Assembly (NCBI GenBank): GCA_965237675.1
Contig: OZ250150.1
Span: 2,656,001-2,720,000, forward strand
Direction: 5' to 3'
DNA: 64,000 nucleotides
Source: Candidatus Latescibacterota bacterium
Lineage (GTDB): Bacteria; Latescibacterota; UBA2968; GCA-2709665
Shown here piece after piece: positions 27,949 to 64,000 of this stretch; within the stretch, counting starts at the first letter, position 1, and each line of letters starts with the position of its first letter. Under the pieces are notes generated by a model. It was not told the origin of the DNA. It did no database searches and saw only the letters and a program-made list of their open reading frames with translations. The position numbers were made by a program, and so were the translations under genes.

Positions 27949-28763
27949 AACCGAACGGCTACGGTGTGCTGGTGTCACGGGATCTCCTCTCTCAACCTGA
28001 AAGCCGCACACATCCTGCGTTTTCCTTCCTGATTGGTCCCATCCGTAATTTAACATTCGCATTCAAAGTTCTACGTGCCAGGATACGATCTGCGACTACG
28101 GGGGTCGCCATATCTCGCGTACTCCAGGAAAAGTAACAAAAATACGCATTCAAGATCTACCATTTTGGCAGAAATTCATTAGGTTTATTAATAAAGGTAT
28201 GTTATATTCGGTTTACATTGACGTCACGGTTTATAACTCGCTCGGCCCCACTTAGCCCGGATTATTCAGTGCGCCGTGAGAAGGCGCGGAACTCCAGTGG
28301 GTGAGAGTCCCACCCGACAAGAGTTGCTCCAGTCGGTAGCAATCGGAGCGGGGACATAGGCAACGACGTCTCCGAAGCCTCCGGTGTAGAGGGTCGCAAG
28401 GCGACTCGGCGAGTATGTAGGCCGTAACGTGAGTGAACGCTACAGCAGGCCTCGAAAAAGGCAATGCGGGAGCCGACCCGCCTGAATTTCGGGGAAGGCC
28501 GCCGTCGTTGGGGAAGAGGGCAACGCGCGCACCCAACGGTCCCGCCGGGGCAATGGCGACGGCATGCATACAAGGAGATCCGACGCAACACGGGAAGCCC
28601 TATCGGCGGTGGAGAGCCACCAACCGGCAACCCGCGAGGGACATGCCGGGCCGACAGGGGTGGCGGAGAGGCCCGTAGTACCTGTGAAGCCGGGTAATGC
28701 CGGTGGAGGAAAGGGGCCTTGGTTCAAGGGCAACGTCAAAGGAGCGAGAGCCGGGAGATTGGT

Positions 28764-30089
28764 ATGCGCCTAAGACCTCCGGAAAAGGTTCGGAAGCTGC
28801 AAAGGACGTTGCGTGCCCAAGCGAAGGAATCGCCCAATTACCGATTCTACGCGCTATATGACAGGGTATATCGCGAGGACATCCTGCTTTATGCCTACCG
28901 CAGCTGCAAGGCCAATGGCGGCGCGGCGGGTGTGGACACAGAGACCTTTGCGGACATCGAGTCATATGGACGTGAGCGGTGGTTGGGTGAACTGGCGGAA
29001 GCCGTCAGAAGCAAATCGTATCGAGCCGACCCGATCCGTCGGGTCTACATCCCCAAGGGTGACGGCAGGCAGCGACCGCTTGGTATCCCGACGGTGAAGG
29101 ACCGTGTGGTGCAAAGTGCAGCGATGCTGGTCTTGGAGCCGATCTTTGAAGCGGACCTGCCATCGCAGCAGTATGCCTACCGACCGAAGAGGAGCGCGCA
29201 CGACGCCATCAGGGCGGTACACGCCCTGGTAAATACAGGCCACACGCAGGTCATCGACGCCGACTAGAGCGGCTATTTCGACACGATCCCGCACGCCGAG
29301 TTGATGAAATCGGTGGCGCGTCGCATCTCGGACGGGCGGATGCTGCGTCTGATCAAGATGTGGCTGACCGCGCCGGTCGAAGAGACCGACAAGCGGGGTC
29401 GGAAGCAGCGAACAACGTCGAACAAGGATCAGGGAAGGGGGATACCGCAAGGCGCCCCCATCTCGCCGTTGATGGCGAACCTGTATATGCGCCGGTTCAT
29501 TCTGGGATGGCAGCTTCTGGGACATCAGCAGCGTCTGAAGGCTCATATTGTCAACTACGCGGACGATTATGTGATCTGCTGTCGCGGCACTGCGCAAGAA
29601 GCGATGCGCGCAATGCGATCCATCTTGAAAGCGCTTAAGTTGACGGTCAATGAGACGAAGACGGGCGAATGTACGCTTTTAGAAGGACGATTTGACTTTC
29701 TGGGCTACACCATCGGCCGCTGTTACTCGCCAAAGACGGGCAAGGCCTATATCGGCACGCGCCCGCCAAAGAAGGCCATCCGGCGCATCTGCCGGGCCAT
29801 CAGCGAGGCGACGGCGCGACGGTGGTTGCTGAAAGACCTTCAAGAACGGATTGCCCACCTGAACCGAAAGCTGGTAGGCTGGGGCAACTACTTCTGTCTT
29901 GGACCGGTCAGCAAAGCCTACCGGAGTGGGGACAGCCACACCCGGAAACGGCTCCGCTGGTGGTTGTGCAACAAGCATAGGATACCGGGAAAGGGAACCT
30001 CACGCTTCCCTGACGAAGTCCTCTACGATACGCTGGGACTGGCCCGGCTGGAAAGGCAGACGCGCAACCTTCCGTGGGCGAACGCATGA
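28764..30089 (+). pseudogene. ltrA: Group II intron reverse transcriptase/maturase with in-frame amber stop
   Basis: GAAGVD, RPLGIPTVKDR, YAYRP, DAD*SGYFD (TAG 29265-29267), GIPQGAPISP, YADD, FDFLG, X domain GWGNYF; no En domain. Confidence 0.9.
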
Positions 30090-30133
30090 ATCCTTGTCGG
30101 AGAGCCGGATGCAGGAAATCCGCACGTCCGGTT

Positions 30134-30992
30134 GTGTGTCCAGCGAAGGCTGGCATGTTCAGCAGGAGACAGTCCTGCCGGGGTAAGAGTCAGCAGCCCC
30201 GTAGCTTGGATAGCAGGGTGGCGGGAAACCAAAATCCTGGAGCCTATCGACAGAGTCTCCCTTGGGTGAGATTGCGAGTCATTGGGCCGTAACGAGAGTG
30301 AACGCAGCGGTGGCCCCGAAAGTGCGAAGGTCCGAAGGCCGAGCCCACAACCGGAGGGCGAAGGCAGCATGGGCAGCCGAATGCTGAACGAGACGGCTGC
30401 CCCACTTCGGCGGGGTGGTAGCGATGGCACGATGACAAGGACATGCCGAGCAACTGGAGAAGCCCTCCTCGCCCTGGCGCGAAATCGCCAGAGCAAGGTA
30501 AGCCCTATAACCGGAGACACCGGGAAGGGGGCTGAAGGTGAGAGGGTGGCGGAGGGGCGCGTAGTAGCGAAGAAGTGGGGTAATGCCCGTGGAGCGAAGG
30601 CGCCCTGCTGTTGACCATTCTCCAACAAAAAGGGAGGCACGGGCGGAATGACAAACACGCCCATCAAGGTGCAGGACCTGAGAAGGAGAATATATCTCAA
30701 GGCGAAGGCTGATTTGGCTGGAAGCGGTGGAGTAGGCAGTGGCTATACAAAGGACTCGAACTCTTTTCTGAGTATCGGGTTGACGACCACGGGCCGAAAG
30801 CCACTCCGGTACAATAGGTCCCATAACCCTTGAGAGGAAATCAGCAGGAAAGCCCGGTGCCGGCAAACGGCACGCCGGGTTTGACGTGGCGGGAGTTGGA
30901 AACGTGACCACGGGAGCCGGACTGAGGCCCATCGCGAAAGCGGTGGAATGGCCACCGGACCCTACCGTCGGCGCGCCAGCTCTCGACCCTAC
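30134..30992 (+). mobile_element. Group II intron 2 (inner; IEP internally deleted), inserted in domain V of intron 1
   Basis: 5' GTGTG at 30134; own DV (GCCCGGTGCC..GGCACGCCGGGTTTGA) and DVI ending CCCTAC at 30992; removal restores GTCCGGTTCGATGAG. Confidence 0.9.
30648..30790 (+). pseudogene. Vestige of intron 2 IEP (N-terminus fused out of frame to C-terminus)
   Basis: GGGAGG RBS + MTNTPIKVQDLRRRIYLKAKAD, then in another frame FGWKRWSRQWLYKGLELF. Confidence 0.8.
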
Positions 30993-31720
30993 CGATGAGC
31001 GGGATGTGGAAACGGAGCACGGAGAGGCTATTGAGGCACCGCCAGACGAAAGGGGCGGAAACAGATAGGCCCCTCCTAAACCACCGCGCCACATCTCGAC
31101 TCTACCAAAAAGAGGTAGTTTCCTTGTACAAGAGGTTGTTTATCCCTATATTTAGGGGTGACAAAAAAGAACAACCTAAAGAAAGGAAACTACCGTGGTA
31201 TCAAGACAAAACAAACGGTGATGAAGTTTGCAAGCATAATGGGCAAGAAGGTCGAAGCGGACTTCGACGGAGGCGTGACGAGCAGCGACGGCGGTGTGAT
31301 GCTTTTGCGGAAGTTGGAGTCGCGCATGGGCATCGTGGATCGGATCGTCGATGCGCTTTGTGACGGGCGTCACCAAAGTTATATCGCGCATACTTATCGG
31401 GACCTTATCAGACAACGGGTGTTCCAGATCGCCTGCGGCTACGAGGATGCCAAAGACAGCAACACCCTTCGCCCGGACCCTGCGCTGAAAGCCGCGTGCG
31501 AGCGGCTGCCGATCACGGATCAGGATCTGGCGTTTCAGCCGACGTTGTCGCGTCTGGAGAACAGCGTGAGCCGCAGGGACCTCTACCGTGTCGGTGAGGC
31601 GTTTGTGGAGGCGTTCATCGCCTCGTATGAAAAGCCGCCGAAGAAAATCGTGTTGGACATCGACGACACGGATGACCCAACGCACGGGTGCCAGCAACTG
31701 TCGTTGTTTCACGGTTATTT

Positions 31721-33102
31721 GAGCTCTTGTCAAGAGGTGTGTAAAAAGAATCAGGCGGCCAGTTTTTCGGATTGTGTGAAGGGTTTGCCATCCCTGTATA
31801 TTTGACCGGCATAGACGGCAGGCAAGAGATGGGACGCCTGTAGCTTACGGAAGCGTTTTTCTGCAACGACCAAGACGCGCCAAATGAGTGCTGTGGCGTT
31901 TTTGACTTTCTTGAATCGCTTGGCGACGTTGGTACGGAGGCGTACCGAGGCAAAGGGACTTTCCACGACATTGGTGGTCCTGATGTGTCTCCAGTGGGGT
32001 TCGGGAAAATCATAGAAGGCGCCCATGCGGTCCCAGTCGCGAAAAAGCGTGTCGACCGCATCCGGATAAGCCTTTTGGAAGTGTGCCGCGAAGCGTTGTC
32101 TGAGCTTGTTGGCGGCCTCTCGGGTTTTGGCGTAAGGCATCTGAGTCAACAATGCTGTGGCGTGCGCCTGAACGCGTTTGGGCAGTTTGTCTAACACGTT
32201 GATGATCTTGTGGTTCCAGCATCGCTGTTGGGTCGCTTCGGGCCAGATCTCATCCGCGGCTGCCCAGATGCCCAGGTTGCCGTCAGCCACCAACAGCACC
32301 GGCACGTTCAGTCCCCTGGTGTGCAGATCGCGCAGGACGTCCTTCCACGACTGGATCGATTCGCGGTAGCCCGGCTGGAGGGCTAAGACTTCTTTGCTTC
32401 CGTCGCTGAGGGCGCCAATAACCACCAACAGGGCTGCCTTTTCCTTCTCCAGGCCCGCTTTAACGTAAATGCCATCGGCCCAGGCGTAGACCAGTTCTCG
32501 ATCCCGTAGGCTGCGGCTGCGCCAGAGTTGGTGTTCGCCTTCCCACTTGGCACGCAGACGTGAAATGGACGCACACGATAAAGGAGCGCCTTCTCCCAAG
32601 AGACCGCGCAGCGCCAGTTCGAAGTCACCCAGCGAAAGGCCGCGTAAATACAACTCGGGAAGCAGATCGCCTACTTCCTTGGTGCGTCGAGCGAACAGCG
32701 GCAGAATCCGGCTTTCAAACCGCGCTTCCAGACCCCGCACTCTCGGCCGCCGCACCTCGACCGTACCGCAGGTCAGCGCAAGCTTGCGAGGCTTCCCATA
32801 GCCGTTGCGATACCCGGGTGAGGGATCCACACCCGCACGGCGCTGGTAGGGAAACCGACCCAGAAAGGCCGTCATCTCTTCTTCCAATACCTGCTGTAAA
32901 CGACCTTGAATCTCATTGCGTGCCCACGCTTCAAGGGCATCCCAAACAGGTGTGGACACTGCCGGGGTGTTTTGCGTATGTTCTTTCACGGCGACTCTCC
33001 TTCCTGCCGGAACCGCATTCGGCTCGGGTTGTAGGTAAACTTCTTGCTACAAGGAAGATAGGGTCGCCCTTTTCTTTTTTCCACACCCTTTTAATTTAAC
33101 TC
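31721..33102 (-). mobile_element. IS256-family element A
   Basis: 8-bp TSD GGTTATTT (31713-31720, 33103-33110); imperfect ~30-bp TIRs GAG...GGTGTG.AAAAAGAA. Confidence 0.93.
31751..32989 (-). CDS. IS256-family (Mutator-like) transposase
   Basis: YRNGY, RPRVR, WADGIY, VADG, QRCWNHK, RTTNVVES. Confidence 0.93.
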   Translation of the reverse strand: MKEHTQNTPAVSTPVWDALEAWARNEIQGRLQQVLEEEMTAFLGRFPYQRRAGVDPSPGYRNGYGKPRKLALTCGTVEVRRPRVRGLEARFESRILPLFARRTKEVGDLLPELYLRGLSLGDFELALRGLLGEGAPLSCASISRLRAKWEGEHQLWRSRSLRDRELVYAWADGIYVKAGLEKEKAALLVVIGALSDGSKEVLALQPGYRESIQSWKDVLRDLHTRGLNVPVLLVADGNLGIWAAADEIWPEATQQRCWNHKIINVLDKLPKRVQAHATALLTQMPYAKTREAANKLRQRFAAHFQKAYPDAVDTLFRDWDRMGAFYDFPEPHWRHIRTTNVVESPFASVRLRTNVAKRFKKVKNATALIWRVLVVAEKRFRKLQASHLLPAVYAGQIYRDGKPFTQSEKLAA

Positions 33103-34967
33103 GGTTATTTTGATAGTATTGCTACATGCCGCTGCATGTGTATGAAGGGCACTCGGGCAAACTCATCACGGCGCTGTTGCGGCCCGGATGCAGAATGGAC
33201 GGACGCACGATGGCGGCGATCTTAAGACGCGTTCTGGATCGGGTGTTGGCAGCGTGGCCGAAGGTTCGGATTCTCTTGCGTGGCGACGGGCACATCTCTG
33301 CGCCGGAAGTGCACGAACTATGTCAGGAATATCGCATCGATTTCCTTCTGGAACAGATGGTTAACAAGAAGCTCAAAGCCCTCGGCCAACCCCTGATGGA
33401 CGATGTCGCTGCACAGACCCAGACGGGTGAAGCACCCGTGCGTCTTTTCACGGCTTTCGATTATCAGGCCAAGTCCTGGAAGCGACCGCTCAGGATCATC
33501 TACAAGGCGGAAATGACCCACGACAAAGCCAACCCTCGCTTTGTCGTCACCAATATCCGTAACCGAACCCCCAGGTTCCTCTACGAGAAGATCTACTGCG
33601 CGCGCGGGCGCACCGAAGGCTTCATCAAAAACCACAAGACCTATCTGCGTTCTGACAGAACCTCCTGCCACCGCTTTTCAGCCAACCAGTCCCGGCTCTT
33701 CTTGCACAGCGCCGCCTACGTGCTCCTGCACGCCCTCAAAGAATCGGGAATGAAAGGCACCTCCTGGGTCAAAGCCGACTTCGATACCATCCAACTGCGG
33801 ATTCTGAAAATCGGCGCCCGCGTTCGAGAACAGACAACAAGGATCCGATTCCACTTCCCGACATCGTATCCCGATAAGGACCTGGTACGCGCCATCATCT
33901 ACAATCTCGATACCGCGTGATGATCAGACACCGCAACAATCAATACAATCCAGACCCAAAGCAACACCAAGGCATCACTGTGACCAGAAACAACCCCAGT
34001 CTCCTTTGAATCCCACCCAAACAGCTTTAAAGATCCAATACCGACTCAACCTTTACAATCACCCTTGCCGAATACATGCTCTACGACCTTCTTCACGCAA
34101 TTTTATACAATTGCATGAATTATTCAGGCTAGCTATATGCTGAATGCTGGTTGCTTCCGTTGTATCTTGCGAAAAATTTGAGCTCGGCCAGCTAAAAGCA
34201 ATGACAAATCCGCCGCAGGAGTTTGGTCATGATGGAATGCTTGTTGTTGGCGATCATGCCTCTGTTCTTGCTTGCTCAGCCAAGCGTCACACGTGACCTG
34301 GTCAGGGACGTTGAATGTGACTTCCGCGTTTTTCTGAGCGGATGTCGTTGAAAGTGGCCCAGGCAATAAGGCTAGGATTCCGGTAGCCTGCGGACGATTG
34401 CTGGAGAATCGGGTGTGGTTAGACAAATACTCGTATAGTGTACAAAGTTTCACTATGTCGGATTCATCTCACCCGTGAAACCCACTGTGGATGAGAGCCA
34501 CGATGGGCGTGTCCTGGGTTGATGTAGGCACCCGCATTGGTTCGGATTTGCAGCAATGCTGGACCGGTGGATCCCCAGTGTATACCGACGCGTTCGACTA
34601 ACTTGCGTGGTGCGTGCAAATCAGACGATCGCACTCACGCCCCCAGCGCCTTGTCCAAAGACGTATCGGTGCTTGGATTTTCGTGGTCCGTGGTGATTTG
34701 AAACTCGGAAATCGAACGATGCGCGAATTGCCGGTTGGAACCATGACTTCCTCGGGTCATGGGTAGGAACTCAGGACCGGCGTAACTTAACTAAAATCAA
34801 GCGGATTCGACGCCGACTCTCGAAAACAAGAACGGTAGCGGTCGCGCGAAATAGCGTTGAAGAGTAATGTGGCGGAGTGAGGAGATGGATGGGCAATGGC
34901 AGGTTTAGAGACCATGGAAAAGAGGGTACGAAAGATAAAGCCTGTATGATGACACCGGGAATATAAG

Positions 34968-36712: not shown

Positions 36713-39700
36713 ATGAAATCTCGGGCTGAGAACTGGATGCTCGTACTTTGCTCTGCCGGGTTGTTGTGCATGATTCTGGTTTCTACCGCGTCTCTTTCGA
36801 CGCAGACAACGTCAACTGTTCCGGACTTCAACGGGAACGGGATTGTGGATTTTTCAGACTTCGTGGCCTTTGCGGCTGTTTTCGGCGTTCAGCAGGGAGA
36901 CGAAGCGTATGATAACAAATACGACCTGGATGGGAATGGCGAGATTGACTTTGGCGACTTTGTGATCTTCGCTCGAAGTTTTGGAAAAGTTGTCAATACA
37001 GCACCTCCAGGAACACGCCCGCCACCGGGTCAGGGCAATTCGCCAGACCTGGTCGTGGCAACTCCTTCGGTGGACGATAGCAGCCTGGACGTAGGAGAAT
37101 CCTTCACCTTGAGCGCCACGGTACGCAACAATGGCAGCGGTTCGTCGTCGGCAACGACATTGCGTTACTACCTGTCGACGGACGCGACGATTTCTGACAG
37201 CGACACGCAGATTGGGACGGACGCTGTGAGCATTTTGGGTGCTTTCGAGGCGAGCGATCAGTCGGTCGATCTGAAGGCGCCGTCAACTGCGGGCACGTAT
37301 TACTATGGCGCCTGTGTCGATGTCGTAACGGGAGAATCCAGCAACGGAAACAACTGCTCCGGTGCGGTAATGGTAACGGTGGGTGGAGGATCACCACCGC
37401 CAGCAGCTCCCGAGGTAACAATTGCAGCGGGTACAACGCCTGTAACGGAAGGCACGGCAGCGACGTTTACAATCACGGTGTCCCCTGCACCGGCATCCGC
37501 TCTGACGGTGAACGTGAAAGTCACCGCAGATGGCGACGTCATCGGTGGTACACCCTATTCAACGGTGACTATCGACGCGAACAAGGGCACGGCTACGCTC
37601 GCGGTCATTACTGTGGATGACCAGGCCGATGAGGCCAATAGCGTGGTGACCGTGCGACTGCAAGGTGGAACCGGCTATACGGTCGGCGGTACATCTTCTG
37701 CTAGCGTAACGGTTAATGACAACGACCCTCCACAAGTGACGATTTCTGCGGGTACCTCACCTGTGAGGGAGGGCACGGCAGCGACGTTTACAATCACAGC
37801 ATCGTCTGCACCGGCCTCGGCACTGAGTGTGGGTGTGTCGGTAACCCAGTCAGGTGATGTCATCAGTGGCACGCCCTCATCAAGTGTGACGATCGATGCG
37901 AACAAGACGACGGCCACGCTGACGGTAGCGACGGACGATGACGGTAACGACGAGTCGAGCGGCGTGGTAACCGCGCAATTGCAGTCTGGCACAGGCTATA
38001 CCGTGGGCAGTACATTTTCGGCCAGTGTAACGGTAAACGACAACGATATTCCGCAGGTGACAATATCAGCAGGAACCACCCCTGTAACGGAAGGCACGGC
38101 AGCGACGTTTACAATCTCAGCGTCTCCTGCACCGGCATCCGCTCTGACAGTTACAGTGAATGTGACAGAGACAGGGGATGTCATAGGCGGTACACCTTCT
38201 ACAACGGTGACTATCGACGCCGCCAAGACTACGACCACGCTGACGGTCAATACGGTAAACGATGAAGCAGACGAACCCAATAGCAAGGTGACCGCAAAAG
38301 TCGAGACCGGCACGGGCTATACGGTGGATAGTGCATTTTCGGCCAGTGTAACGGTAAACGACAACGATATTCCGCAGGTGACAATATCAGCAGGAACCAC
38401 CCCTGTAACGGAAGGCACGGCAGCGACGTTTACAATCTCAGCGTCTCCTGCACCGGCATCCGCTCTGACAGTTACAGTGAATGTGACAGAGACAGGGGAT
38501 GTCATAGGCGGTACACCTTCTACAACGGTGACTATCGACGCCGCCAAGACTACGACCACGCTGACGGTCAATACGGTAAACGATGAAGCAGACGAACCCA
38601 ATAGCAAGGTGACCGCAAAAGTCGAGACCGGCACGGGCTATACGGTGGATAGTGCATTTTCGGCGAGCGTGACCGTTAACGACAATGACGATGCTCCACC
38701 TGGAACGCCGGTGGTGACAATTGCAGGAGGCACTCCCTCTGTAACGGAAGGCACGGCAGCGACGTTTACAATCACGGTGTCCCCTGCACCGGCATCCGCT
38801 CTGACGGTGAACGTGAAAGTCACCGAAGATGGCGACGTCATCGGTGGTACACCCTATTCAACGGTGACTATCGACGCGAACAAGGGCACGGCTACGCTCG
38901 CGGTCAATACTGTGGATGACCAGGCCGATGAGGCCAATAGCGTGGTGACCGCGCGACTGCAAGGTGGCACCGGCTATACGGTCGGCAGTACATCTCCTGC
39001 TAGCGTAACGGTAAACGACAACGACCCTCCACAAGTGACGATTTCTGCGGGTACCTCACCTGTGAGGGAGGGTACGGCAGCGACGTTTACAATCACAGCA
39101 TCGTCTGCACCGACCTCGGCACTGAGTGTGGGTGTGTCCGTCACCCAGTCAGGTGATGTCATCAGTGGCACGCCCTCATCAAGTGTGACGATCGATGCGA
39201 ACAAGACGACGGCCACGCTGACGGTAGCGACGGATGATGACAGTAAAGATGAGTCCAATGGCGTGGTAACCGCGCAATTGCAGTCTGGCACAGGCTATAC
39301 GTTGGACAGTACATCTTCGGCCAGTGTAACGGTAAACGACGACGATATCCCACAGGTGACAATTGCAGGAGGTACTCCCTCTGTAACGGAAGGCACGGCA
39401 GCGACGTTTACAATCACGGTGTCCCCTGCACCGGCATCCGCTCTGACGGTGAACGTGAAAGTCACCGAAGATGGCGACGTCATCGGTGGTACACCCTATT
39501 CAACGGTGACTATCGACGCGAACAAGGGCACGGCTACGCTCGCGGTCAATACTGTGGATGACCAGGCCGATGAGGCCAATGGCGTGGTAACCGCGCAATT
39601 GCAGTCTGGCACAGGCTATACGTTGGGCAGTACATCTTCTGCTAGCGTAACGGTCAATGACAACGACCCTCCACAAGTGACGATTTCTGCGGGTACCTCA

Positions 39701-42700
39701 CCTGTGACGGAGGGTACGGCAGCGACGTTTACAATCACAGCATCGTCTGCACCGACCTCGGCACTGAGTGTGGGTGTGTCCGTCACCCAGTCAGGTGATG
39801 TCATCAGTGGCACGCCCTCATCAAGTGTGACGATCGATGCGAACAAGACGACGGCCACGCTGACGGTAGCGACGGACGATGACGGTAACGACGAGTCGAG
39901 CGGCGTGGTAACCGCGCAATTGCAGTCTGGCACAGGCTATACCGTGGGCAGTACATTTTCGGCCAGTGTAATGGTAAACGACAACGATATTCCGCAGGTG
40001 ACAATATCAGCAGGAACCACCCCTGTAACGGAAGGCACGGCAGCGACGTTTACAATCTCAGCGTCTCCTGCACCGGCATCCGCTCTGACAGTTACAGTGA
40101 ATGTGACAGAGACAGGGGATGTCATAGGCGGTACACCTTCTACAACGGTGACTATCGACGCCGCCAAGACTACGACCACGCTGACGGTCAATACGGTAAA
40201 CGATGAAGCAGACGAACCCAATAGCAAGGTGACCGCAAAAGTCGAGACCGGCACGGGCTATACGGTGGATAGTGCATTTTCGGCGAGCGTGACCGTTAAC
40301 GACAATGACGATGCTCCACCTGGAACGCCGGTGGTGACAATTGCAGGAGGTACTCCCTCTGTAACGGAAGGCACGGCAGCGACGTTTACAATCACGGTGT
40401 CCCCTGCACCGGCATCCGCTCTGACGGTGAACGTGAAAGTCACCGAAGATGGCGACGTCATCGGTGGTACACCCTATTCAACGGTGACTATCGACGCGAA
40501 CAAGGGCACGGCTACGCTCGCGGTCAATACTGTGGATGACCAGGCCGATGAGGCCAATAGCGTGGTGACCGCGCGACTGCAAGATGGCACAGGCTATACG
40601 TTGGGCAGTACATCTTCTGCTAGCGTAACGGTCAATGACAACGACCCTCCACAAGTGACGATTTCTGCGGGTACCTCACCTGTGAGGGAGGGTACGGCAG
40701 CGACGTTTACAATCACAGCATCGTCTGCACCGACCTCGGCACTGAGTGTGGGTGTGTCCGTCACCCAGTCAGGTGATGTCATCAGTGGCACGCCCTCATC
40801 AAGTGTGACGATCGATGCGAACAAGACGACGGCCACGCTGACGGTAGCGACGGATGATGACGGTAACGACGAGTCGAGCGGCGTGGTAACCGCGCAATTG
40901 CAGTCTGGCACAGGCTATACGTTGGACAGTACATCTTCGGCCAGTGTAACGGTAAACGACGACGATATCCCACAGGTGACAATTGCAGGAGGTACTCCCT
41001 CTGTAACGGAAGGCACGGCAGCGACGTTTACAATCACGGTGTCCCCTGCACCGGCATCCGCTCTGACGGTGAACGTGAAAGTCACCGAAGATGGCGACGT
41101 CATCGGTGGTACACCCTATTCAACGGTGACTATCGACGCGAACAAGGGCACGGCTACGCTCGCGGTCAATACTGTGGATGACCAGGCCGATGAGGCCAAT
41201 GGCGTGGTAACCGCGCAATTGCAGTCTGGCACAGGCTATACGTTGGGCAGTACATCTTCTGCTAGCGTAACGGTCAATGACAACGACCCTCCACAAGTGA
41301 CGATTTCTGCGGGTACCTCACCTGTGACGGAGGGTACGGCAGCGACGTTTACAATCACAGCATCGTCTGCACCGACCTCGGCACTGAGTGTGGGTGTGTC
41401 CGTCACCCAGTCGGGTGATGTCATCAGTGGCACGCCCTCATCAAGTGTGACGATCGATGCGAACAAGACGACGGCCACGCTGACGGTAGCGACGGACGAT
41501 GACAGTAAAGATGAGTCCAATGGCGTGGTAACCGCGCAATTGCAGTCTGGCACAGGCTATACGGTCGGCGGTACATCTTCTGCTGGCGTAACGGTCAATG
41601 ACAACGACCCTCCACAAGTGACGATTTCTGCGGGTACCTCACCTGTGACGGAGGGTACGGCAGCGACGTTTACAATCACAGCATCGTCTGCACCGACCTC
41701 GGCACTGAGTGTGGGTGTGTCCGTCACCCAGTCGGGTGATGTCATCAGTGGCACGCCCTCATCAAGTGTGACGATCGATGCTAACAAGACCACGGCCACA
41801 CTGACGGTAGCAACCGATGATGACGGTAACGACGAGTCGAGCGGCGTGGTAACCGCGCAATTGCAGTCTGGCACAGGCTATACGTTGGGCAGTACATCTT
41901 CTGCTAGCGTAACGGTCAATGACAACGACCCTCCACAAGTGACGATTTCTGCGGGTACCTCACCTGTGACGGAGGGTGCGGCAGCGACGTTTACAATCAC
42001 AGCATCGTCTGCACCGACCTCGGCACTGAGTGTGGGTGTGTCCGTCACCCAGTCGGGTGATGTCATCAGTGGCACGCCCTCATCAAGTGTGACGATCGAT
42101 GCTAACAAGACCACGGCCACACTGGCGGTAGCAACCGATGATGACGGTAACGACGAGTCGAGCGGCGTGGTAACCGCGCAATTGCAGTCTGGCACAGGCT
42201 ATACGTTGGGCAGTACATCCTCGGCCACTGTAACGGTTAATGACAATGATGAGCGGCTGCCGGCGGCTTCAGTCGTGATCAGTCCAGACACGCTGGCGTT
42301 TACGGCGGTCGGCGCGTCCGCGACTCTGACGGGCCGCATACTGGACGCTAACGGTAATGCGACGTATCCCACGTCCTTGGGTTGGACGTCGGCCAACAGG
42401 GAAGTGGCTACAGTAACTTCACTGACAAGCCTTGACTTGAGCCGACCGAAAGCGACGGTAAAGGCCATTGGTGGAGGGACGACCACCATTACGCTGGGCG
42501 TGGACGACGACGTGACTGGGACGGCCACGGTGACGGTAACACTGATGGGACGACGAGTGGAAATCTCGCCGGGTAGGCTCAGGTTCGATGCGCTGGGGCA
42601 AACAAAGATGGTGACGGTCAAGGTATTGTATGAAAACGACGACGAGGATACAGAAGCTTCGTTCTCAGCTTCTTCGGCGTTTTCTCCGTTGCGGGGGACC

Positions 42701-43159
42701 ACAATCGGAGATGGAGGTCTGGACATCGAAAAAGTGGATGGCGGAATCCAGATCACAGCGAACGCAAATGGGATCGGAAGTGTTACCATTTCCTCGGCTG
42801 GCGCCGAAAGCGCTATTTTGCATGTAAGTGCGGCACAAAGTCCGGCGTCCCTTGTGGTTTCACCGGATTCGGTGGGCTTGGCGGTAGGCGCGACCGCGAC
42901 GCTTAGTGCGGCAATAAGCGACGCAAACGGTCACGGCATCGTGCTGGATCAGGGTGACGGTCAAGGCGGTCTTATGGTGTCTTGGGAAACCAGCGACTCG
43001 GCCGTGGCGACGGTAACAGGCGCTACTGCCACCAACGACAGTAATACGGGCGGCACGGCTACGGTTTCCGCAGCCGGGGCAGGGGCGGCTACGATCACCG
43101 GCCGGTGGGGGAGTTACATTCGTGGTACGGCCAAAGTGACGGTGACGGCCGGTAACTGA
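36713..43159 (+). CDS. Giant secreted adhesin-like protein: dockerin/EF-hand-like tag, CARDB-like domain, 15 Calx-beta-like repeats, Ig-like (Big_2) tail
   Basis: Signal peptide; PDFNGNGIVDFSDF..YDLDGNGEIDFGDF; SPDLVV..YYGACVD; 107-aa repeats VTI.AG..VTEG..ATFT...VTVNDND. Confidence 0.88.
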   Translation: MKSRAENWMLVLCSAGLLCMILVSTASLSTQTTSTVPDFNGNGIVDFSDFVAFAAVFGVQQGDEAYDNKYDLDGNGEIDFGDFVIFARSFGKVVNTAPPGTRPPPGQGNSPDLVVATPSVDDSSLDVGESFTLSATVRNNGSGSSSATTLRYYLSTDATISDSDTQIGTDAVSILGAFEASDQSVDLKAPSTAGTYYYGACVDVVTGESSNGNNCSGAVMVTVGGGSPPPAAPEVTIAAGTTPVTEGTAATFTITVSPAPASALTVNVKVTADGDVIGGTPYSTVTIDANKGTATLAVITVDDQADEANSVVTVRLQGGTGYTVGGTSSASVTVNDNDPPQVTISAGTSPVREGTAATFTITASSAPASALSVGVSVTQSGDVISGTPSSSVTIDANKTTATLTVATDDDGNDESSGVVTAQLQSGTGYTVGSTFSASVTVNDNDIPQVTISAGTTPVTEGTAATFTISASPAPASALTVTVNVTETGDVIGGTPSTTVTIDAAKTTTTLTVNTVNDEADEPNSKVTAKVETGTGYTVDSAFSASVTVNDNDIPQVTISAGTTPVTEGTAATFTISASPAPASALTVTVNVTETGDVIGGTPSTTVTIDAAKTTTTLTVNTVNDEADEPNSKVTAKVETGTGYTVDSAFSASVTVNDNDDAPPGTPVVTIAGGTPSVTEGTAATFTITVSPAPASALTVNVKVTEDGDVIGGTPYSTVTIDANKGTATLAVNTVDDQADEANSVVTARLQGGTGYTVGSTSPASVTVNDNDPPQVTISAGTSPVREGTAATFTITASSAPTSALSVGVSVTQSGDVISGTPSSSVTIDANKTTATLTVATDDDSKDESNGVVTAQLQSGTGYTLDSTSSASVTVNDDDIPQVTIAGGTPSVTEGTAATFTITVSPAPASALTVNVKVTEDGDVIGGTPYSTVTIDANKGTATLAVNTVDDQADEANGVVTAQLQSGTGYTLGSTSSASVTVNDNDPPQVTISAGTSPVTEGTAATFTITASSAPTSALSVGVSVTQSGDVISGTPSSSVTIDANKTTATLTVATDDDGNDESSGVVTAQLQSGTGYTVGSTFSASVMVNDNDIPQVTISAGTTPVTEGTAATFTISASPAPASALTVTVNVTETGDVIGGTPSTTVTIDAAKTTTTLTVNTVNDEADEPNSKVTAKVETGTGYTVDSAFSASVTVNDNDDAPPGTPVVTIAGGTPSVTEGTAATFTITVSPAPASALTVNVKVTEDGDVIGGTPYSTVTIDANKGTATLAVNTVDDQADEANSVVTARLQDGTGYTLGSTSSASVTVNDNDPPQVTISAGTSPVREGTAATFTITASSAPTSALSVGVSVTQSGDVISGTPSSSVTIDANKTTATLTVATDDDGNDESSGVVTAQLQSGTGYTLDSTSSASVTVNDDDIPQVTIAGGTPSVTEGTAATFTITVSPAPASALTVNVKVTEDGDVIGGTPYSTVTIDANKGTATLAVNTVDDQADEANGVVTAQLQSGTGYTLGSTSSASVTVNDNDPPQVTISAGTSPVTEGTAATFTITASSAPTSALSVGVSVTQSGDVISGTPSSSVTIDANKTTATLTVATDDDSKDESNGVVTAQLQSGTGYTVGGTSSAGVTVNDNDPPQVTISAGTSPVTEGTAATFTITASSAPTSALSVGVSVTQSGDVISGTPSSSVTIDANKTTATLTVATDDDGNDESSGVVTAQLQSGTGYTLGSTSSASVTVNDNDPPQVTISAGTSPVTEGAAATFTITASSAPTSALSVGVSVTQSGDVISGTPSSSVTIDANKTTATLAVATDDDGNDESSGVVTAQLQSGTGYTLGSTSSATVTVNDNDERLPAASVVISPDTLAFTAVGASATLTGRILDANGNATYPTSLGWTSANREVATVTSLTSLDLSRPKATVKAIGGGTTTITLGVDDDVTGTATVTVTLMGRRVEISPGRLRFDALGQTKMVTVKVLYENDDEDTEASFSASSAFSPLRGTTIGDGGLDIEKVDGGIQITANANGIGSVTISSAGAESAILHVSAAQSPASLVVSPDSVGLAVGATATLSAAISDANGHGIVLDQGDGQGGLMVSWETSDSAVATVTGATATNDSNTGGTATVSAAGAGAATITGRWGSYIRGTAKVTVTAGN
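37409..42250 (+). repeat. 15 tandem ~321-bp coding repeats in three subtypes
   Basis: Order A-B-C-C-A-B-A-B-C-A-B-A-B-B-B, near-identical at DNA level. Confidence 0.9.
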
Positions 43160-43355: not shown

Positions 43356-43739
43356 GTGGGGAGACACCAACCGGCAGCCCGTGAGGGACAGGCCCGTAGT
43401 ACTGATGATGCCGGGTAACGCCGGCGGAGGAAAGGGGCCTGACTTCGGACGCGTTTGTGCAGGGGACAACGGTATGAAGAGTGGCACAAGCCTAAAACCA
43501 CCAAAGAAAGACGAGGCGATTCCGGAACAGGCTTGGTCTTCAGGTGAAGATGCGTGGGCAGCGCAGACAGCGTGTGCCTGTAAGCGACGTCCGTCGGAGA
43601 GCCGGATGCTGTTAATTCGCACGTCCGGTTCGACGAGGGGGATGTGGAAACGGAGCATGGAGCGGCTATTGAGGCACCGCCAGACGAAAGGGGCGGATAC
43701 TGACAGGCCTCTAACCACAGCACTGCATCGTTACTCTAC
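43356..43739 (+). mobile_element. 5'-truncated, ORF-less group II intron remnant (DII/III to DVI)
   Basis: Homologous to intron 1 28608-28725; intact DV GAGAGCCGGATGC..GCACGTCCGGTTCGACGAGGGGG; ends CTCTAC at 43739. Confidence 0.85.
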
Positions 43740-51420: not shown

Positions 51421-54400
51421 TAGTCCCGACGTCGAACTCATTTCGTCACGTAAATTTCCACCGAACACGGAAGACATTTCCCTTCAATTCAAGGTGGCGG
51501 ATACTGACGGGCTTCACCAGTTGATCCTGTTTACCACCACGCCACCTCTTCACTGGGGTAGCGGATTCCCTGAAGTGGAGGCGTGGCGGGGATTGGCGAA
51601 GGAGGAACGTGCTGTCGTTGACTTCAGGTACGAGCGCGATCCCTCAGGGATGATTCAAAGCCCTGATTTAGAGAAGATCCATATCAACGCGCTAGACACG
51701 GATGGGAACGTACTGCAGGCATCGTTCAATCTCGTGAGTATTTCGCCTTATCATTACGCAACACTTGAGGGGCATACGCACTGGGTCTTCAGCGTGTTAT
51801 TCTCACCGGACGGAAGAGTCGTGGCTTCCGGTTCATACGATAATACGATGCGGCTCTGGGACGTCGCCACGGGCAAGACTCTTTCCACCCTTTTGTATGC
51901 AAGCTCAATCGTTTCGATGGCATTTTCGCCCGATGGGACGACCGTCGCTTCCGGGCTGAACAATGGAAATGTACTACTATCGGACGTTGCGACGGGCAGA
52001 CACATCACGACTCTCCGGGGGCATACGAATGATGTACGGTCAGTTGCGTTCTCGCCCGACGGGTCTACGCTAGCTTCCGGATCCTACGACAACACCGTGA
52101 AGCTCTGGGACGTTAGTGCGGGAAATACAATCTCCACACTCGTAGGTCATACGGATGGCGTGCAGTTGGTGTTGTTCGCTCCTGACGGGAAAGCGCTAGC
52201 TTCCAGGTCAAGGGACAAGTCGGTAAGGCTTTGGGACACGGTGGCCGGCACGCGCCTCGCGACGCTTCCGCATTCACATCCAGTCTCTTCGGTGTCTTTT
52301 TCGCCCGATGGGACGACTCTCGCTTCCGGAGCGGACGATAACAATGTCCGATTGTGGGCGGTTGCTACAGGAGAACTCATCGACACTTTTAAGGGGCACG
52401 CGCGAGCAGTCTCTTCGGTGTCTTTTTCGCCCAATGGGAAGATTCTGGCCTCGGGGTCATTCGACAACACAGTCAGGCTATGGCGAGCAGATGAGGGAAT
52501 GGCCATCGCCACATTGCGGGGCCACGAGAGTGGGGTCACCAGGTTGTTGTTTTCGCCTGATGGAACGCTCCTGGCTTCAGCGGCTTGGGACCATACTGTG
52601 AAGGTATGGGACGTTACCACGGGTGCGAGTCTTGCTACCTTTCCACATACGGAAACGGCCGCTTCGATATCGTTTTCACCGGATGGGAGGCTCCTCGCTA
52701 CTTCGGAAAACAAAACTGTCGAGTTGTGGGATCTGTCCACATGGACCTTACCCCGTGCGCAAACCGTGAAGATAATCTCAGGCGACAACCAGGAAGGCGC
52801 ATCCGGCGCCGCATTAGCTGATCCGCTGATCGTTGAAGTACGAGATCAACTCGGTGAGCCAATATCGGGTGCGCAGGTCACGTTTACGGTCATAGCAGGC
52901 GATGGTAGCTTCAGCAGTGGATTCACGACATTGAATGCCAAAACGGGTCCGGACGGCAGAGCGCAGGTACTCCTCACCCTGGGTCCCAATCCGGGACCGA
53001 ATACCGTCAGGGCATCGATCGCCGAACTCGTAGTGGAAACGTTCAACGCCGTGGGCCTTGGGTCATCTGTTGTAACGGATAACGCCCTCGACTATCCGAC
53101 GTGGCATCTGCCACGAGGGGCCGCCCTGCGTCTGGGAAAGGGTGTCATCGGCCAAAGCGACCGTGCGATTGCTTTTTCTCCTGACGGCAAGCTTGTTGGG
53201 GTGGCAAGTGGCATTGGCGTCTGGCTATACTCGGTGGAAGACCCGGAAAAAGTCACTCTGCTTCGCTCAGACCTTGTCAATTCGTTGTCCTTTTCCCCTG
53301 ACGGCAGAACGCTTGCCTCGGCGGGCGGAGTGTTTGAAAAGGAGGAGATCAAGCTGTGGGATGTGGCAACGAGAACCAGTACACGGATTGCTAATGGATG
53401 GTACTCCGCCGATGTCACGTTTTCTCCGGATGGCAGGGTCCTCGCATACCGTGCAAGAGATGGGTCGAATATCGAATTGTGGGATCTCGCTTCGGGGACT
53501 TCTGCGACCACCAAAGGCAGCGATGACGACGGTCTTATTACCAGTCTGACGATTTCACCAGATGGAGCCACCCTCGCATCTGGGTTTAATGACGGCAAGA
53601 TAAAGCTGTGGGACATGGTAACGCGCACCTATGCCGCCACGCTTGACGGGCATCCCCGTGAGGTCCACTCTGTGGCCTTTACTCCGGACGGCAACACTCT
53701 CGCCTCTGCGTCCAGTGACGGGACGGTAAGGCTGTGGGACCCGGCGTCGGGAACCAACGTTGCTACCCTGCGGGATCACGGCAGTAGTGTTATCAGCATT
53801 GTGTTTTCTCCTGACGGCTCCATCTTCGCCACCGGGGCATGGAACGGTGATATAAAACTCTGGCATACGGCGACGCTTGGAAATTTCGATGCGTTAAATG
53901 GCCACGGGGATCTTGTTAGGGCGGTTTCATTCTCTCCGAATGGGAACACCTTCGCCACCGGTTCCATAGATGGCACGGTCAAGCTGTGGGATCTGGCATC
54001 GGGAAACGCCACCACCATTTCCGGTCATTCGGCAGCGATTTTTGGCATGGCTTTTACACCGGACGGGTCAACACTGGCTTCCTACTCCAGTTCACTTCAA
54101 GGAAAGGTTGAAATATGGGATGTTGCAACGGGACGATTGGTCGCCGCCCTTGGTGAGCATAGGTGTTCTCCCGTTGAGACATTGGCCATTTCACCGGATG
54201 GGACGACGCTCGCCACAGGTTCACAGGACAGGACCGTCCGGCTATGGGACCTTCATACACACACAAATTTCGCTACGTTGGAACACGACCATAAAGTGTG
54301 GGTGGTTTCCTTTTCACCCGATGGAAGGATGCTGGCATCCGCGGGTGGGAGATCAGTCAACCTGTGGAACGTCAGAACACAAGACAAGATTGCGGAGTTT

Positions 54401-55369
54401 AACGGTCTTCGTGATGCGGTTACAGCTCTTGCTTTCTCACCAGACGGAGCAACTCTGGCTTCGGGACTGTACTATGGCGAGATCAGGGTTTGGGACCTGT
54501 TGACCGGTACAACCGTTGCCGTACTTGCTGGATCTTCCGCACGGATTCTCTCGTTGTCCTTCTCTTCCGACGGAACACGGCTTACGTCCGGTTCGTACGA
54601 TGATGTCGTGAGGGTGTGGGACCTGGTGAAAGGCAGCACTCTCGACACACGGAAAGCAAAGTGGACTCAAGATATGGCATTTTCTTCCGACGGGACGATG
54701 TTTGCCACCGGTTCAGGCGACCGAATGGTCAGACTCTATGATATGTCGACAGGCGACATAGTCTCCACCTTTGGAGGGCATGCGCACTGGATCCACAGCG
54801 TGGTGTTCTCGCCTGATGGCAATACCCTGGCGTCGGGATCCAACGACGGCACGATTCTACTGTGGGATCTGCAACGCATTCATTCCGTGCCCTATCTTGT
54901 AAAGGGGGTCTCCGGCATTGAGCAGAAAGGGCCGGCAGGGACCGTGTTAGCCAAGCCGTTTGTCGTCTCGGTGCGGGACGAAAACGGGGAACCTTACGCC
55001 GGTGCCGTTGTCACCTTCGTCGTTACTGCCGGCGGAGGCACGCTTTCCGTAACCACCGACACGACCGATGCCAGCGGAAAGGCCGGCACGACCCTGACTT
55101 TGGGAACAAAGCCGGGGACAAACACCGTTGTCGCAACGGTCGCTGATCTCGAGCCATTGGCCTTTACTGCTATTGGCGAGGCCAACCCCGACTATGATGG
55201 AGACGGTAAGGTTGGCTTTGGCGATTTTCTGCTATTTGTGGAGAGGTTCGGTCTCAGTCAGGATGACGACGGATATGAAGCGCGGTACGATCTGGATGGT
55301 AATGGCGAGGTGGGATTTTCGGACTTTCTGATATTCGCAGGCGACTTCGGGAAGACTGTAGGGAATTAG
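51421..55369 (+). pseudogene. WD40-repeat protein paralogue 1, 5'-truncated at IS630 (signal peptide and metalloprotease lost)
   Basis: Sequence right after the IS is identical to paralogue 3 from ~61660; GH...V.S..FSPDG..LASGS.D.TV.LWD repeats, two Ig-like (Big_1) domains, C-terminal dockerin-like tag; could be translated from GTG 51494. Confidence 0.82.
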
Positions 55370-55917: not shown

Positions 55918-56197
55918 AGCCTGACTGCGACTCCTGAACCCGCCACGCCCTCCAGTAAATCATCAGGTTTCTTTGTAGAAGTACGTTAAGATTCGTTTTT
56001 CGGTAACGTCGCAATCGATAACTCTTTTAGCGGCAAGCCTCTGGCGATAGCATATATTCCGATTTCGCATAATGCCTCGTGGGAGCAATCGATCCGCATC
56101 GAGCAGGCGTTGCAAGATCAGCCACCGATCCGCACCTCGGCCAACGTATCGGACTGGATTCTGTGCGAATACAGTTAAGAAAGACGAGGATTTAGCA

Positions 56198-60764: not shown

Positions 60765-60888
60765 CTGTCTGTAGCCGCAGGAACGGGAACCGTCGCTGAC
60801 CAAAATTGCATGTTGTAGTAAGTAAGGGCGCCCATGGATCGCTGGAGACATGGGTCGTTCTCACGCGGCAGGGAGAGGGGGGAAACCG

Positions 60889-63800: not shown

Positions 63801-64000
63801 ATGTCTGACGTTTTCTCCGGATGGAGCCACCGTCGCTTCCGGGCACCACGACGGGACAATCAGGCTGTGGGATGTCGCGACGCAAAACATTACCTCCACC
63901 CTGGAGGGTCATCGTCGATATATCGACTCCGTGACCTTTTCTTCAGACGGGAGAACCCTCGCGTCGGCCTCCGCTGACGGTACGGTCAAGTTGTGGGACG
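60889..64000 (+). CDS. Secreted metalloprotease + WD40 protein paralogue 3, 3'-partial (missing from the ORF track because no stop in window)
   Basis: ATG 60889 MQNHIH..VLFLVSIGLIFCPLLGSYAYPQETGDVPFCEP; same frame at the window end; AHELGHGFGLHH; collinear with paralogue 2. Confidence 0.88.
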   Translation, partial: MQNHIHRSIWQHGMRVLFLVSIGLIFCPLLGSYAYPQETGDVPFCEPIDLSQVQSEGSEAAGKRAFSLNAGDPRTVRVIYFVPNNRSFSVTVEDSIKRAVRQVRTFFAEQMKAHGSGLDVLRIETDDSGDPQIHRVRGQHPNDHYADNMHSAVFSEIRQDYDTQANIYIAFIDNSRSFTPRGGRNAKTGGEASLRVDFDWQTVAHELGHGFGLHHDFRNNAYVMSYGAEPDSLSAMAAEFLSVHPYFNPGIATEWTASPDVELISSRKFPPNTEDISLQFKVADTDGLHQLILFATTPLINWGGGFPEVKAWRGMAQQGNAVVDFEYERDPVGMIQNPDLEKIHISALDTDGNFRQTSFNLVSVSPYHYASLEGHTHWVFSVLFSPDGRVVASGSYDKTMRLWDVATGKTLSTFSYASSIVSMAFSPDGTTIASGLDDGNVLLSDVATGKHITTLQGHTDDVRSLAFSPDGSTLASGSYDNSIKLWEVVTGETIATLKVHSGGGTSTFFSPEVLFSPTGKVLASRTGDNNVRLWDAVTGTSLATLPHPNPVSSVSFSPDGTTLASGADDNNVRLWAVVTGELIDTFKGHARAVSSVSFSPDGKILASGSFDNTVRLWRADEGMAIATLRGHEGGVTRLLFSPDGTLLATAASDHTVKVWDVTTGASLATFRHTQTAASVSFSPDGRFLATSDDKTVELWDTSTWTLPRAQTVTIISGDNQEGAPGRALANPLIVEVRDQFGEPISGAQVTFLIIGGDGSFSSGFTTEHATTGPDGIAQVLLTLGPNPGPNTVRASIAELVVETFNALGHGSPVIDDDAFDYSRLHLPRGASLRLGNGAIGESDRAVAFSPDGKQLAVASGIGTWLFAVDEPEKGTLLPSDVVHSVSFSPDGKTLVSSGGWRREGEVRLWDVATETYTRIPMHEGNWTDLLLSPDGRTLAYPGGVTLRLRDVTAGTDASILGTYGAFVNHPTCLTFSPDGATVASGHHDGTIRLWDVATQNITSTLEGHRRYIDSVTFSSDGRTLASASADGTVKLWD

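Follow-up and report, generated by a model that had tools for sequence, protein, structure and literature searches.

Group II introns are often found within transposases (Waldern et al., PMC7306698), and the closest precedent for an intron that uses the ends of a transposable element as its sites is RmInt2 of Sinorhizobium meliloti GR4, whose natural copies are all described as lying in the inverted repeats of the insertion sequence (IS) ISRm17 (Martinez-Rodriguez et al. 2014, PMC4615759; PMC5894124), an IS of the ISNCY family, ISDol1 group (PMC10194956). Each ISRm17 offers two sites on opposite strands, with an intron-binding site (IBS) region from -14 to +1, and the authors considered that the two repeat sites guarantee one target on the lagging-strand template; mobility was shown experimentally, and none of the four further complete S. 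meliloti genomes known at the time had the intron (PMC4615759; PMC5894124). RmInt1, a class D intron without an endonuclease, has its homing site in the multicopy ISRm2011-2 of the IS630 family and is primed at the replication fork, and its insertion is said to block the spread of the IS (PMC5894124, PMC4615759). Three target specificities are listed for group II introns, namely homing sites, terminators and attC sites (PMC4424553), and under this list the targeting of repeats counts as ordinary homing. Here we describe a locus in a 64,000-nucleotide stretch of the genome of a Candidatus Latescibacterota bacterium (assembly GCA_965237675.1, contig OZ250150.1, positions 2,656,001 to 2,720,000 of the forward strand; the window hereafter), in which positions 28269-31105 very probably hold a fossil twintron, seated at a retrohoming site between the 13-bp terminal repeat of an IS1380-family element and the body of that IS. 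An intron in IS inverted repeats is a known phenomenon, with RmInt2 as its type case; the ends of IS1380 elements and of MITEs (miniature inverted-repeat transposable elements), together with a widespread intron lineage, extend it.

The introns described here resemble RmInt2 in lacking an endonuclease, in being IIB-like and in having IS inverted repeats as sites. They differ in that RmInt2 is a class D intron with the C-terminal motif LX3AX3PXLF[V/A]HW and an ISNCY target, whereas the motif is absent here and the target is IS1380; moreover, RmInt2 comes from one strain, while the present clade spans at least 10 phylum labels, includes MITEs among its targets and is known from sequence alone. 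RmInt1 shares the absence of an endonuclease and a multicopy IS as target, but its IS is of another family (IS630) and it belongs to class D. The RmInt1 site lies inside ISRm2011-2, not at its terminal repeat. We found no paper that links group II introns with IS1380 or MITE repeats in a search whose scope stopped short of subscription journals and supplements.

The target site and the outer of the two introns have the following features:

28252..28255, + strand: left YTAR target duplication, TTAG (the right copy, CTAG, matches it at 3/4 positions)
28256..28268, + strand: left terminal inverted repeat of the IS1380-family element (13 bp, CCCGGATTATTCA), serving as the 5' exon of the intron
28255-28259, + strand: IBS2
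28263-28268, + strand: IBS1
28269..30133, + strand: outer group II intron, 5' segment, from the GTGCG end through domains I-V (own-genome copies 86-94% identical)
28295-28432, + strand: RF02003 (group-II-D1D4-4) match of the outer intron, 102.6 bits
28458..28462, + strand: outer exon-binding site 2 (EBS2), AAGGC, which pairs with the last flank base and the IS tip (GCC...)
28483..28488, + strand: outer EBS1, TGAATT, in the loop of the hairpin at 28477-28493
28764..30089, + strand: reverse transcriptase/maturase pseudogene, 441 codons, no endonuclease domain, in-frame TAG at 29265-29267
30102..30133, + strand: probable outer domain V; the inner intron homes into its 3' strand (CGCAC..CCGGTT)
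30993..31105, + strand: outer intron, 3' segment, with a long structured domain VI, whose bulged A is 7 nucleotides (nt) short of the end, and with ...CTAC as the 3' splice site

The sequence at 28252-28278 reads ...acTTAG, then CCCGGATTATTCA, then GTGCGCCGTG..., that is, flank, repeat and intron start, and at 31095-31118 the intron end ...CTCGACTCTAC is followed by the IS body, CAAAAAGAGGTAG... (across 31105/31106 the sequence is ...CTCGACTCTAC and then CAAAAAGAGG...). The conserved ends, GTGCG at 28269 and CTAC at 31102-31105, recur in four full-length paralogues, and only two matches to Rfam families in the whole 64 kb reach the gathering score, both of them to RF02003 (gathering score 49). 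The initial annotation had placed the start of a group II intron right after the 13-bp left repeat, which the sequence, RF02003 and the empty sites described below all bear out, with the 3' end now at 31105.

No second copy of the window's IS subfamily was found in the source genome (own genome hereafter; its chromosome is referred to as C1, and L-numbers denote loci extracted from this and related genomes). Intron-free copies of the IS, named in the initial annotation as something to look for, are present in three genomes of the same genus at 87-92% identity, and in these empty sites the repeat with its flank, YTAR followed by CCCGGAT(T/C)ATTCA, runs directly into [T/C]AAAAAGAGG. The three read CTAA, CCCGGATTATTCA, TAAAAAGAGG (L126); CTAG, CCCGGATTATTCA, TAAAAATAGG (L127); and CTAA, CCCGGATCATTCA, CGAAAAGAG (L129). 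A related 1691-bp IS1380-like element is present in the own genome as 21 full-length copies, 14 of them at 99.88% identity or more. Its left ends all (21/21) read YTAR, CCTGAATAATTCA, CAAAAAAGG (CAAAAA...) with no intron, and 20/21 right ends read ...GATTCA, TGAATTAATC(G/A)GG, YTAR; the 21st right end, that of the copy at C1:519169, holds an outer-type intron reading inward. The YTAR duplications of other own-genome IS copies mostly match. Left and right ends resemble each other up to base 13 and no further, which places the intron directly behind the repeat.

Eight outer-type 5' junctions were found in the own genome, from four full-length copies and four fragments, and at five of the eight the 5' exon is a tip-like 13-mer ending in ATTCA, in agreement with the earlier suggestion that the intron homes just inside IS1380-type ends:

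window: CCCGGATTATTCA
C1:522853, right end read inward: CCTGAATAATTCA
C1:3961503, subterminal inverted copy at a right end, read outward: CCGTGACAATTCA
C1:110188: TCTGGATAATTCA
C1:5305321: TCTGACTCATTCA

The remaining three comprise one TCTGTATGATCCA and two other sequences. At C1:3961503 the 3' exon is TGAATTAATCAGG, so the intron lies at the centre of a 26-bp palindrome native to right ends and reads outward. A candidate solo 26-bp element was discarded for the own genome, since its examples there share sequence past the palindrome (TTAGCTGC...) and are therefore the ends of longer repeats; L084 and L086 may still be cases of it. The only intact protein gene of this type in the own genome belongs to the copy at C1:4792005-4793952, whose 5' exon, TTAG followed by CAGTCCGTTGATA, is the end of a MITE of about 175 bp (ends CAGTCCGTTGATA...TTTCAACGGGCTG, YTAR flanks; occupied copy C1:4791845-4792004). 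This MITE is represented in the own genome by about 30 near-full-length copies and by shorter matches (50 BLAST hits), and its family occurs at about 40 places besides the occupied one; the other copies were not found with an intron, and no autonomous partner for it was identified in the own genome. That every new IS copy provides a new target, as had been pointed out, is true by construction: 51 own-genome sites combine YTAR with a tip-like 13-mer, and two of them are occupied, being followed by the intron 5' end GTGCG. No intact intron with a matching EBS1 appears to be left in the own genome, which fits the empty state of its young IS copies.

The pairing between intron and target was assessed in an alignment of 56 distinct introns (positions -20 to +260), counting only pairs that had been named beforehand. 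The loop CCCG-CCTGAATTT-CGGG at 28477-28493, which had been proposed as the EBS1 loop, was confirmed as such because its pairs covary with the target: EBS1-IBS1 (exon -6 to -1) is paired in 91.1% of cells and 6/6 pairs change on both sides, while EBS2-IBS2 (exon -14 to -10) is paired in 67.3% of cells with 5/5 pairs covarying. The final flank base, position -14, forms a pair in 42/55 introns, as A-U, G-C or G-U, and the 4-bp stem around the EBS1 loop is paired in 96.4%. When the partners were slid by 1-3 columns, pairing fell to 26-48%, a control that somewhat favours the structure, which was derived from the same sequences, and that leaves the breadth of pair types unaffected; none of 500 shuffles (0/500) reached the observed value. 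Individual introns illustrate the match: among own-genome copies, the loop CCUGAAUUU accompanies 5' exons that end in AATTCA or TATTCA, a paralogue with the loop AUUAUCAGC follows ...TTGATA, and the inner intron of the window, with the loop ACAACCGGA, follows ...CCGGTT. In the inner intron, the CCCG/CGGG stem is also the best fold of the EBS1 region. In IIE and IIF introns, EBS2 has been described as dispensable for self-splicing in vitro (PMC3753933), which raises the question of its purpose. A covarying EBS2 that reaches one base past the IS tip supports a role, as judged from these alignments, in the choice of the DNA target.

The initial annotation had described one intron at the terminal repeat. 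The intron and its site are real, but the 2.84 kb in the window is a twintron, two nested introns and not one, and both are evidently dead. The inner intron comprises:

30134..30992, + strand: inner group II intron, 859 nt, GTGTG...CTAC, with its open reading frame (ORF) nearly all deleted
30160-30297, + strand: RF02003 match of the inner intron, 111.4 bits
30322-30326, + strand: inner EBS2, GTGCG
30349-30354, + strand: inner EBS1, AACCGG
30851-30881, + strand: candidate inner domain V, placed by eye and fold
30883-30992, + strand: inner long domain VI

Removing the insert restores the outer intron, and the insert has its own ends, its own RF02003 match and exon-binding sites complementary to its flanks. 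In the uninterrupted outer copy at C1:520887-522853, the equivalent of 30133 joins that of 30993 directly and the 859 nt are absent; this copy and that at C1:4792005-4793952 read ...CGTCCGGTT followed by CGATGAGCGGG... without an insert. A second twintron, C1:3956968-3961503, has the same inner intron at the same site (98% identical; C1:3956968-3957939). The inner loop ACAACCGGA complements CCGGTT and the inner GTGCG complements CGCAC, both in the 3' strand of outer domain V, which suggests that domain V of related introns is where the inner intron homes. For the nested introns of Methanosarcina acetivorans and for bacterial twintrons, site-specific homing into introns is described, which keeps the insertions outside host genes and provides a perpetual homing site (PMC4424553); the inner intron here lies between domains V and VI, its target being the 3' strand of domain V. 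The outer intron is predicted to be dead, given the TAG in its protein gene and a ribozyme split between domains V and VI, and the inner one, in which a remnant of about 56 codons replaces the protein gene and the 3' end reads ...CTCGACCCTAC, would be dead as well.

Several further observations concern nesting. An IS1380-like copy 93.8% identical to the abundant family lies inside the reverse-transcriptase gene of the second twintron (C1:3958391-3960090; L024/L025) with a TTAG duplication, and the invasion of intron by IS and of IS by intron thus goes in both directions. In another Latescibacterota genome, two intron 5' ends lie 749 nt apart (L075:2750 and L075:3499), the second directly after ...CTCGACCCTAC, the 3' end of another intron, which indicates tandem or nested introns.

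To place the outer intron among its relatives, one genome per species was searched with the intact intron protein, and the best 80 of at least 539 stretches represented 79 distinct loci. Intron ends were located with profiles made from own-genome copies, and exons were then tabulated. The relatives are 85-98% identical in Candidatus Latescibacterota genomes and 63-75% identical in Planctomycetota, Acidobacteriota, Gemmatimonadota, Pseudomonadota, Myxococcota, Verrucomicrobiota and others, and the protein clade spans at least 10 phylum labels. There were 81 junctions with at least 40 nt upstream, which gave 72 distinct 5' contexts once those with six or fewer mismatches over 30 nt of a kept one had been dropped. 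YTAR stands at -17 to -14, a gap of 13 nt, in 30/72 contexts and at -16 to -13 in 4/72; no other offset has it in more than two, and about one would be expected. The tabulation of 5' exons, which the initial annotation had expected to return mostly IS1380 repeats, gave IS1380-like tip 13-mers in 26/72 contexts, 20 of them with YTAR, and 10 more YTAR contexts carry other 13-mers. Both ends are defined for 63 introns, and in 15 of these the 13-nt 5' exon recurs downstream as an inverted copy (at most two mismatches, within 220 nt; chance about 0.002 per intron by our own estimate). Seven of these 15 partners lie 134-216 nt away and are followed by YTAR, as in MITE-sized elements, and two abut the intron.

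The range of targets is correspondingly broad. An IS1380 transposase gene lies directly downstream of the intron at L053, L067 and L080, an IS5-family gene is downstream of L113, and a Pfam scan of 112 downstream ORFs found DDE_Tnp_1_4 at three loci. One related genome, G031 (which holds L083-L088), has an approximately 175-bp MITE that gave 41 hits, about 30 of them near full length, and that carries two of the full-length introns examined there, L083 and L088; the same genome has a separate 2.07-kb IS (L186-L191; 603-amino-acid DDE_Tnp_1 transposase, CTAA duplications, six full copies, ends CCCGAGTTTACC and CCCATCTTTACC), in which an ORF-less intron of about 835 nt occupies 10/12 ends, 12 nt from the tip and reading inward. 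The IS5-like, DDE_Tnp_1 and MITE targets make the habit wider than IS1380 proper. Independent copies are found at both repeats of an element, at the left end in the window, at the right end reading inward at C1:522853 and L080, and at both ends at L186-L189. In one related Latescibacterota genome, four different 5' exons, of which one is not tip-like, precede five copies with 99.9-100% identity, and this points to recent activity in that genome. Taken together, it is well supported by the tabulated junctions that this intron lineage habitually homes just inside transposon ends, be they of IS1380, IS5-like or other DDE elements or of MITEs.

In a quick maximum-likelihood tree of 45 distinct intact proteins (excluding introns without both ends, introns over 2300 nt, ORFs under 400 amino acids and duplicate proteins), IS1380-tip targets occur in several well-supported subclades and in different phyla, the starred branches force at least six label changes, and the six basal Planctomycetota rows have other targets. 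The tree is unrooted, which leaves no choice between the two histories that it would fit, old specialisation with frequent retargeting or repeated convergence. The data suggest that this habit is of long standing and widely distributed in an intron lineage whose hosts are uncultured phyla of soil and sediment, and that it is not the peculiarity of one rhizobial strain. A Latescibacterota sub-lineage (L047-L050, L058, L060, L123) has the EBS1 CAUGGA and stands after ...ATCCATG in TTATCCTGT-like repeat arrays, which are possibly the multi-site end of a larger transposon; at L074, an empty site of the ATCCATG type is found about 250 nt downstream of the intron in a CCTGAATTATTCA end.

A mechanism consistent with these sites can be sketched. 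EBS2 pairs with -14 to -10, which takes in the final base of the YTAR duplication and then the IS tip CCY(G), and EBS1 pairs with -6 to -1, (A/T)ATTCA, so that reverse splicing could take place 13 nt inside any element end read inward, and at right ends also outward via the subterminal inverted copy. As the intron protein has no endonuclease, the priming of complementary DNA would presumably fall to nascent DNA at the replication fork; endonuclease-less introns are reported to use the leading or lagging strand at forks as primer (PMC4424553). In the window, homing of the outer intron may have been followed by entry of an ORF-less intron of the same RNA family into domain V, and then by the stop codon and the IS256 insertion. 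Cumulative GC skew along the own chromosome is lowest at 0.19 Mb and peaks at 3.96 Mb, and in 8/9 own-chromosome copies and fragments the sense strand is on the lagging-strand template, co-oriented with the fork; the exception, at 0.52 Mb, is in a flat part of the curve. This orientation bias is suggestive only. The skew itself rises from 0.19 to 3.96 Mb and falls over about 1.8 Mb, which implies unequal replichores or a rearranged assembly.

Structural features place the outer intron in a IIB-like lineage that is probably class F-like. The intact paralogue protein (L023:1548-2870; 441 amino acids) scores 350.4 bits against TIGR04416 (cut-off 300) over residues 39-405 of 441, Pfam assigns it only RVT_1 and GIIM, and its best matches among solved structures are endonuclease-less enzymes of class C. 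Its C-terminus is ...ALYNTLGLVRLEVRPRNFPWANA (...RNFPWANA), in which inspection by eye, with no profile, did not find the class D motif LX3AX3PXLF[V/A]HW. Class F introns (Ge.ur.I1, Pe.th.I2, Ni.ha.I1) are described as IIB-like with a small ribozyme (PMC3753933, PMC3552965), and IIE and IIF introns, IIF especially, as having a 5-nt domain V loop, a long structured domain VI and EBS1 and EBS2 in domain Id (PMC3753933). The present introns have 5-nt domain V loops (GAAAU in the paralogue, GCAAA in the inner intron), domains VI of 113 and 110 nt, EBS1 and EBS2 in domain Id and an endonuclease-less protein; the outer domain VI folds at -44.3 kcal/mol (z score -4.3), and outer domain V, GAGCCGGAUGC...GUCCGGUU, folds as a hairpin at -14.9 kcal/mol. 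Transposon ends are not mentioned as targets in what we draw on from PMC3753933 and PMC3552965. A plasmid of Nitrobacter hamburgensis X14 encodes a protein 50% identical to the present one; Ni.ha.I1, which may be the X14 plasmid copy, is listed as a class F intron (PMC3552965).

How introns came to sit at these ends could be explained in other ways, of which the most serious is that of the initial annotation, in which the intron rides as cargo: the repeat stays usable, the IS or MITE takes the intron along when it transposes, and the intron owes its spread mainly to this transport. The 13-bp repeat is indeed kept at the tip, and matching 4-bp duplications flank intron-bearing MITE-sized elements (L046, CTAA/CTAA; L083, CTAG/CTAG; L106, TTAG/TTAG; L110, CTAG/CTAG) as well as four IS copies in G031 that have introns at both ends, each with CTAA on both sides. 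In G031, however, the introns are 99.88-100% identical while the IS bodies are 96.8-99.0% identical, which implies that the introns entered after the IS copies had diverged, by repeated homing, unless gene conversion homogenised them; the left end of one copy there is empty, as is the right end of another. In the own genome, none of the 14 near-identical IS copies has an intron and the occupied ones are solitary and decayed, and intron-free orthologues of the window's IS stand at other sites in related genomes. Among the loci examined, no case requires co-transposition, and since the multiplied IS copies are empty and the G031 introns are more alike than their hosts, we regard spread as cargo as improbable and this part of the earlier proposal was not sustained.

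Less probable still is insertion directed by structure, in the manner of class C introns, which are described as associated with terminators and attC sites, with the stem-loop recognised and no EBS2 (PMC4424553). The introns here resemble them in lacking an endonuclease and in being tied to inverted-repeat motifs of other elements, and recognition of a hairpin would account for an insertion point at the centre of the imperfect 26-bp palindrome of the right end (inverted subterminal copy plus terminal repeat), for the occurrence of both orientations (C1:522853, C1:3961503; L084, L086, L059) and for an inner intron that also adjoins a hairpin, domain V. Yet left ends, the window's included, have no palindrome, and EBS1 and EBS2 covary with the exon sequence, in contrast to class C introns, for which the absence of EBS2 is reported (PMC3753933); the palindrome merely gives the same 13-mer on both strands, and we consider this explanation very unlikely. 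A one-off ectopic insertion, with a chance match between loop and repeat, could appeal to the 5/6 match to a 6-mer, which is weak alone, and to a search with the bare 13-mer (three or fewer mismatches), which gave 12 matches against 16.6 expected and was without statistical power. The same offset in independent contexts in many phyla, the covariation and the empty sites refute it, and we give it practically no weight. We return therefore to homing of the intron into pre-existing element ends as the preferred reading. A more ambitious version is that this class F-like, endonuclease-less lineage is a dedicated hyperparasite of YTAR-duplicating DDE transposons, among them IS1380, IS5-like elements, their relatives and the MITEs of these, always 12-13 nt inside the tip, that only integrated copies would be recognised by EBS2, that EBS1 and EBS2 would be retuned to new families, and that occupied elements would stop multiplying, the intron being a brake and not a passenger; this we put forward tentatively, as possible though short of probable.

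Several observations weigh against homing as set out above, or against parts of it. Outer domain V scores 28.4 bits against RF00029 (30100-30156, E 0.0081, permissive threshold), below the gathering score of 40, and for inner domain V RF00029 gave no match at the permissive threshold. Folded on its own, the 25-nt outer EBS1 region prefers another small hairpin (z score 0.28), and it is the alignment that supports the stem. An EBS3 partner for the initial base of the 3' exon was looked for over intron positions 1-260 and not found, no column being paired in more than 68% of 47 introns. Neither YTAR offset is seen in 38/72 contexts, and of four named relatives on plasmids, whose proteins are 50-63% identical, only one has YTAR. 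Within 4 kb, an IS1380-family transposase gene was found at 5/79 loci (four queries; 4/79 with two), so that IS1380 itself is established for a minority, and the assignment of other sites draws on the tip, the YTAR flank and the inverted partner; IS1380 transposase neighbours had been expected for the relatives and are mostly lacking, many targets being MITE-sized. Finally, the origin and terminus behind the orientation count come from an asymmetric curve with a shallow minimum.

The host element itself has the following parts:

31106..31720, + strand: IS1380-family body, part 1, with the N-terminal part of the transposase from 31158 (NF033539, 140.9 bits; colinear with the intact orthologue L126)
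31721..33101, - strand: IS256-family element, 1381 bp, in the IS1380 transposase gene (NF033543, 279.9 bits)
31751-32989, - strand: IS256-family transposase gene, 412 amino acids
31712-31720 and 33102-33110: 9-bp IS256 target duplication, CGGTTATTT (breakpoints by alignment to L126 and L127)
33102..34128, + strand: IS1380-family body, part 2, with the C-terminal part of the transposase at 33126-33920 (NF033539, 206.1 bits)
34116-34128, + strand: right terminal repeat
34129..34132, + strand: right YTAR target duplication, CTAG

IS1380 elements are about 1.6-1.7 kb long, duplicate 4 bp of their target and have short terminal inverted repeats that begin with CC. The window's element has ends of the CC type and 4-bp flanks, its orthologue L126 is 1644 bp long with CTAA on both sides, and both halves of the gene match the IS1380-type DDE transposase model NF033539 (cut-off 180), the N-terminal one with 140.9 and the C-terminal one with 206.1 bits. 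The left and right ends, CCCGGATTATTCA and CCTGAATAATTCA, agree at 10/13 positions. The right end reads ...TGAATTATTCAGG followed by CTAG (34116-34132), and its reverse complement ends in AATTCA, as noted earlier for the position equivalent to the left TATTCA. With its transposase gene split by the IS256-family insertion, the IS1380 element is predicted to be dead, and the locus as a whole reads as a dead pile of four nested mobile elements.

Mobile elements specialised on other mobile elements shape the spread of both. For an intron without an endonuclease, a terminal repeat makes a good target, being multicopy, harmless to the host, available on both strands and renewed with each transposition, and the window is a clear natural case, with empty sites and strong EBS-IBS covariation. 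Many of the broken "transposase" and "reverse transcriptase" annotations in metagenome-assembled genomes also find their explanation in nested piles of this kind. Elsewhere in the window, positions 43356-43739 (+ strand) hold an internally deleted remnant of the outer type, in which a short piece of domain I is joined to domains V-VI, with the 5' end missing and a 3' boundary that reads ...TACTCTAC followed by GCCGACGG. Long ORFs of 2148, 1291, 1520 and >1050 amino acids, at 36713-43159, 51494-55369, 56072-60634 and 60850-63999, respectively, are found downstream of the mobile-element pile.

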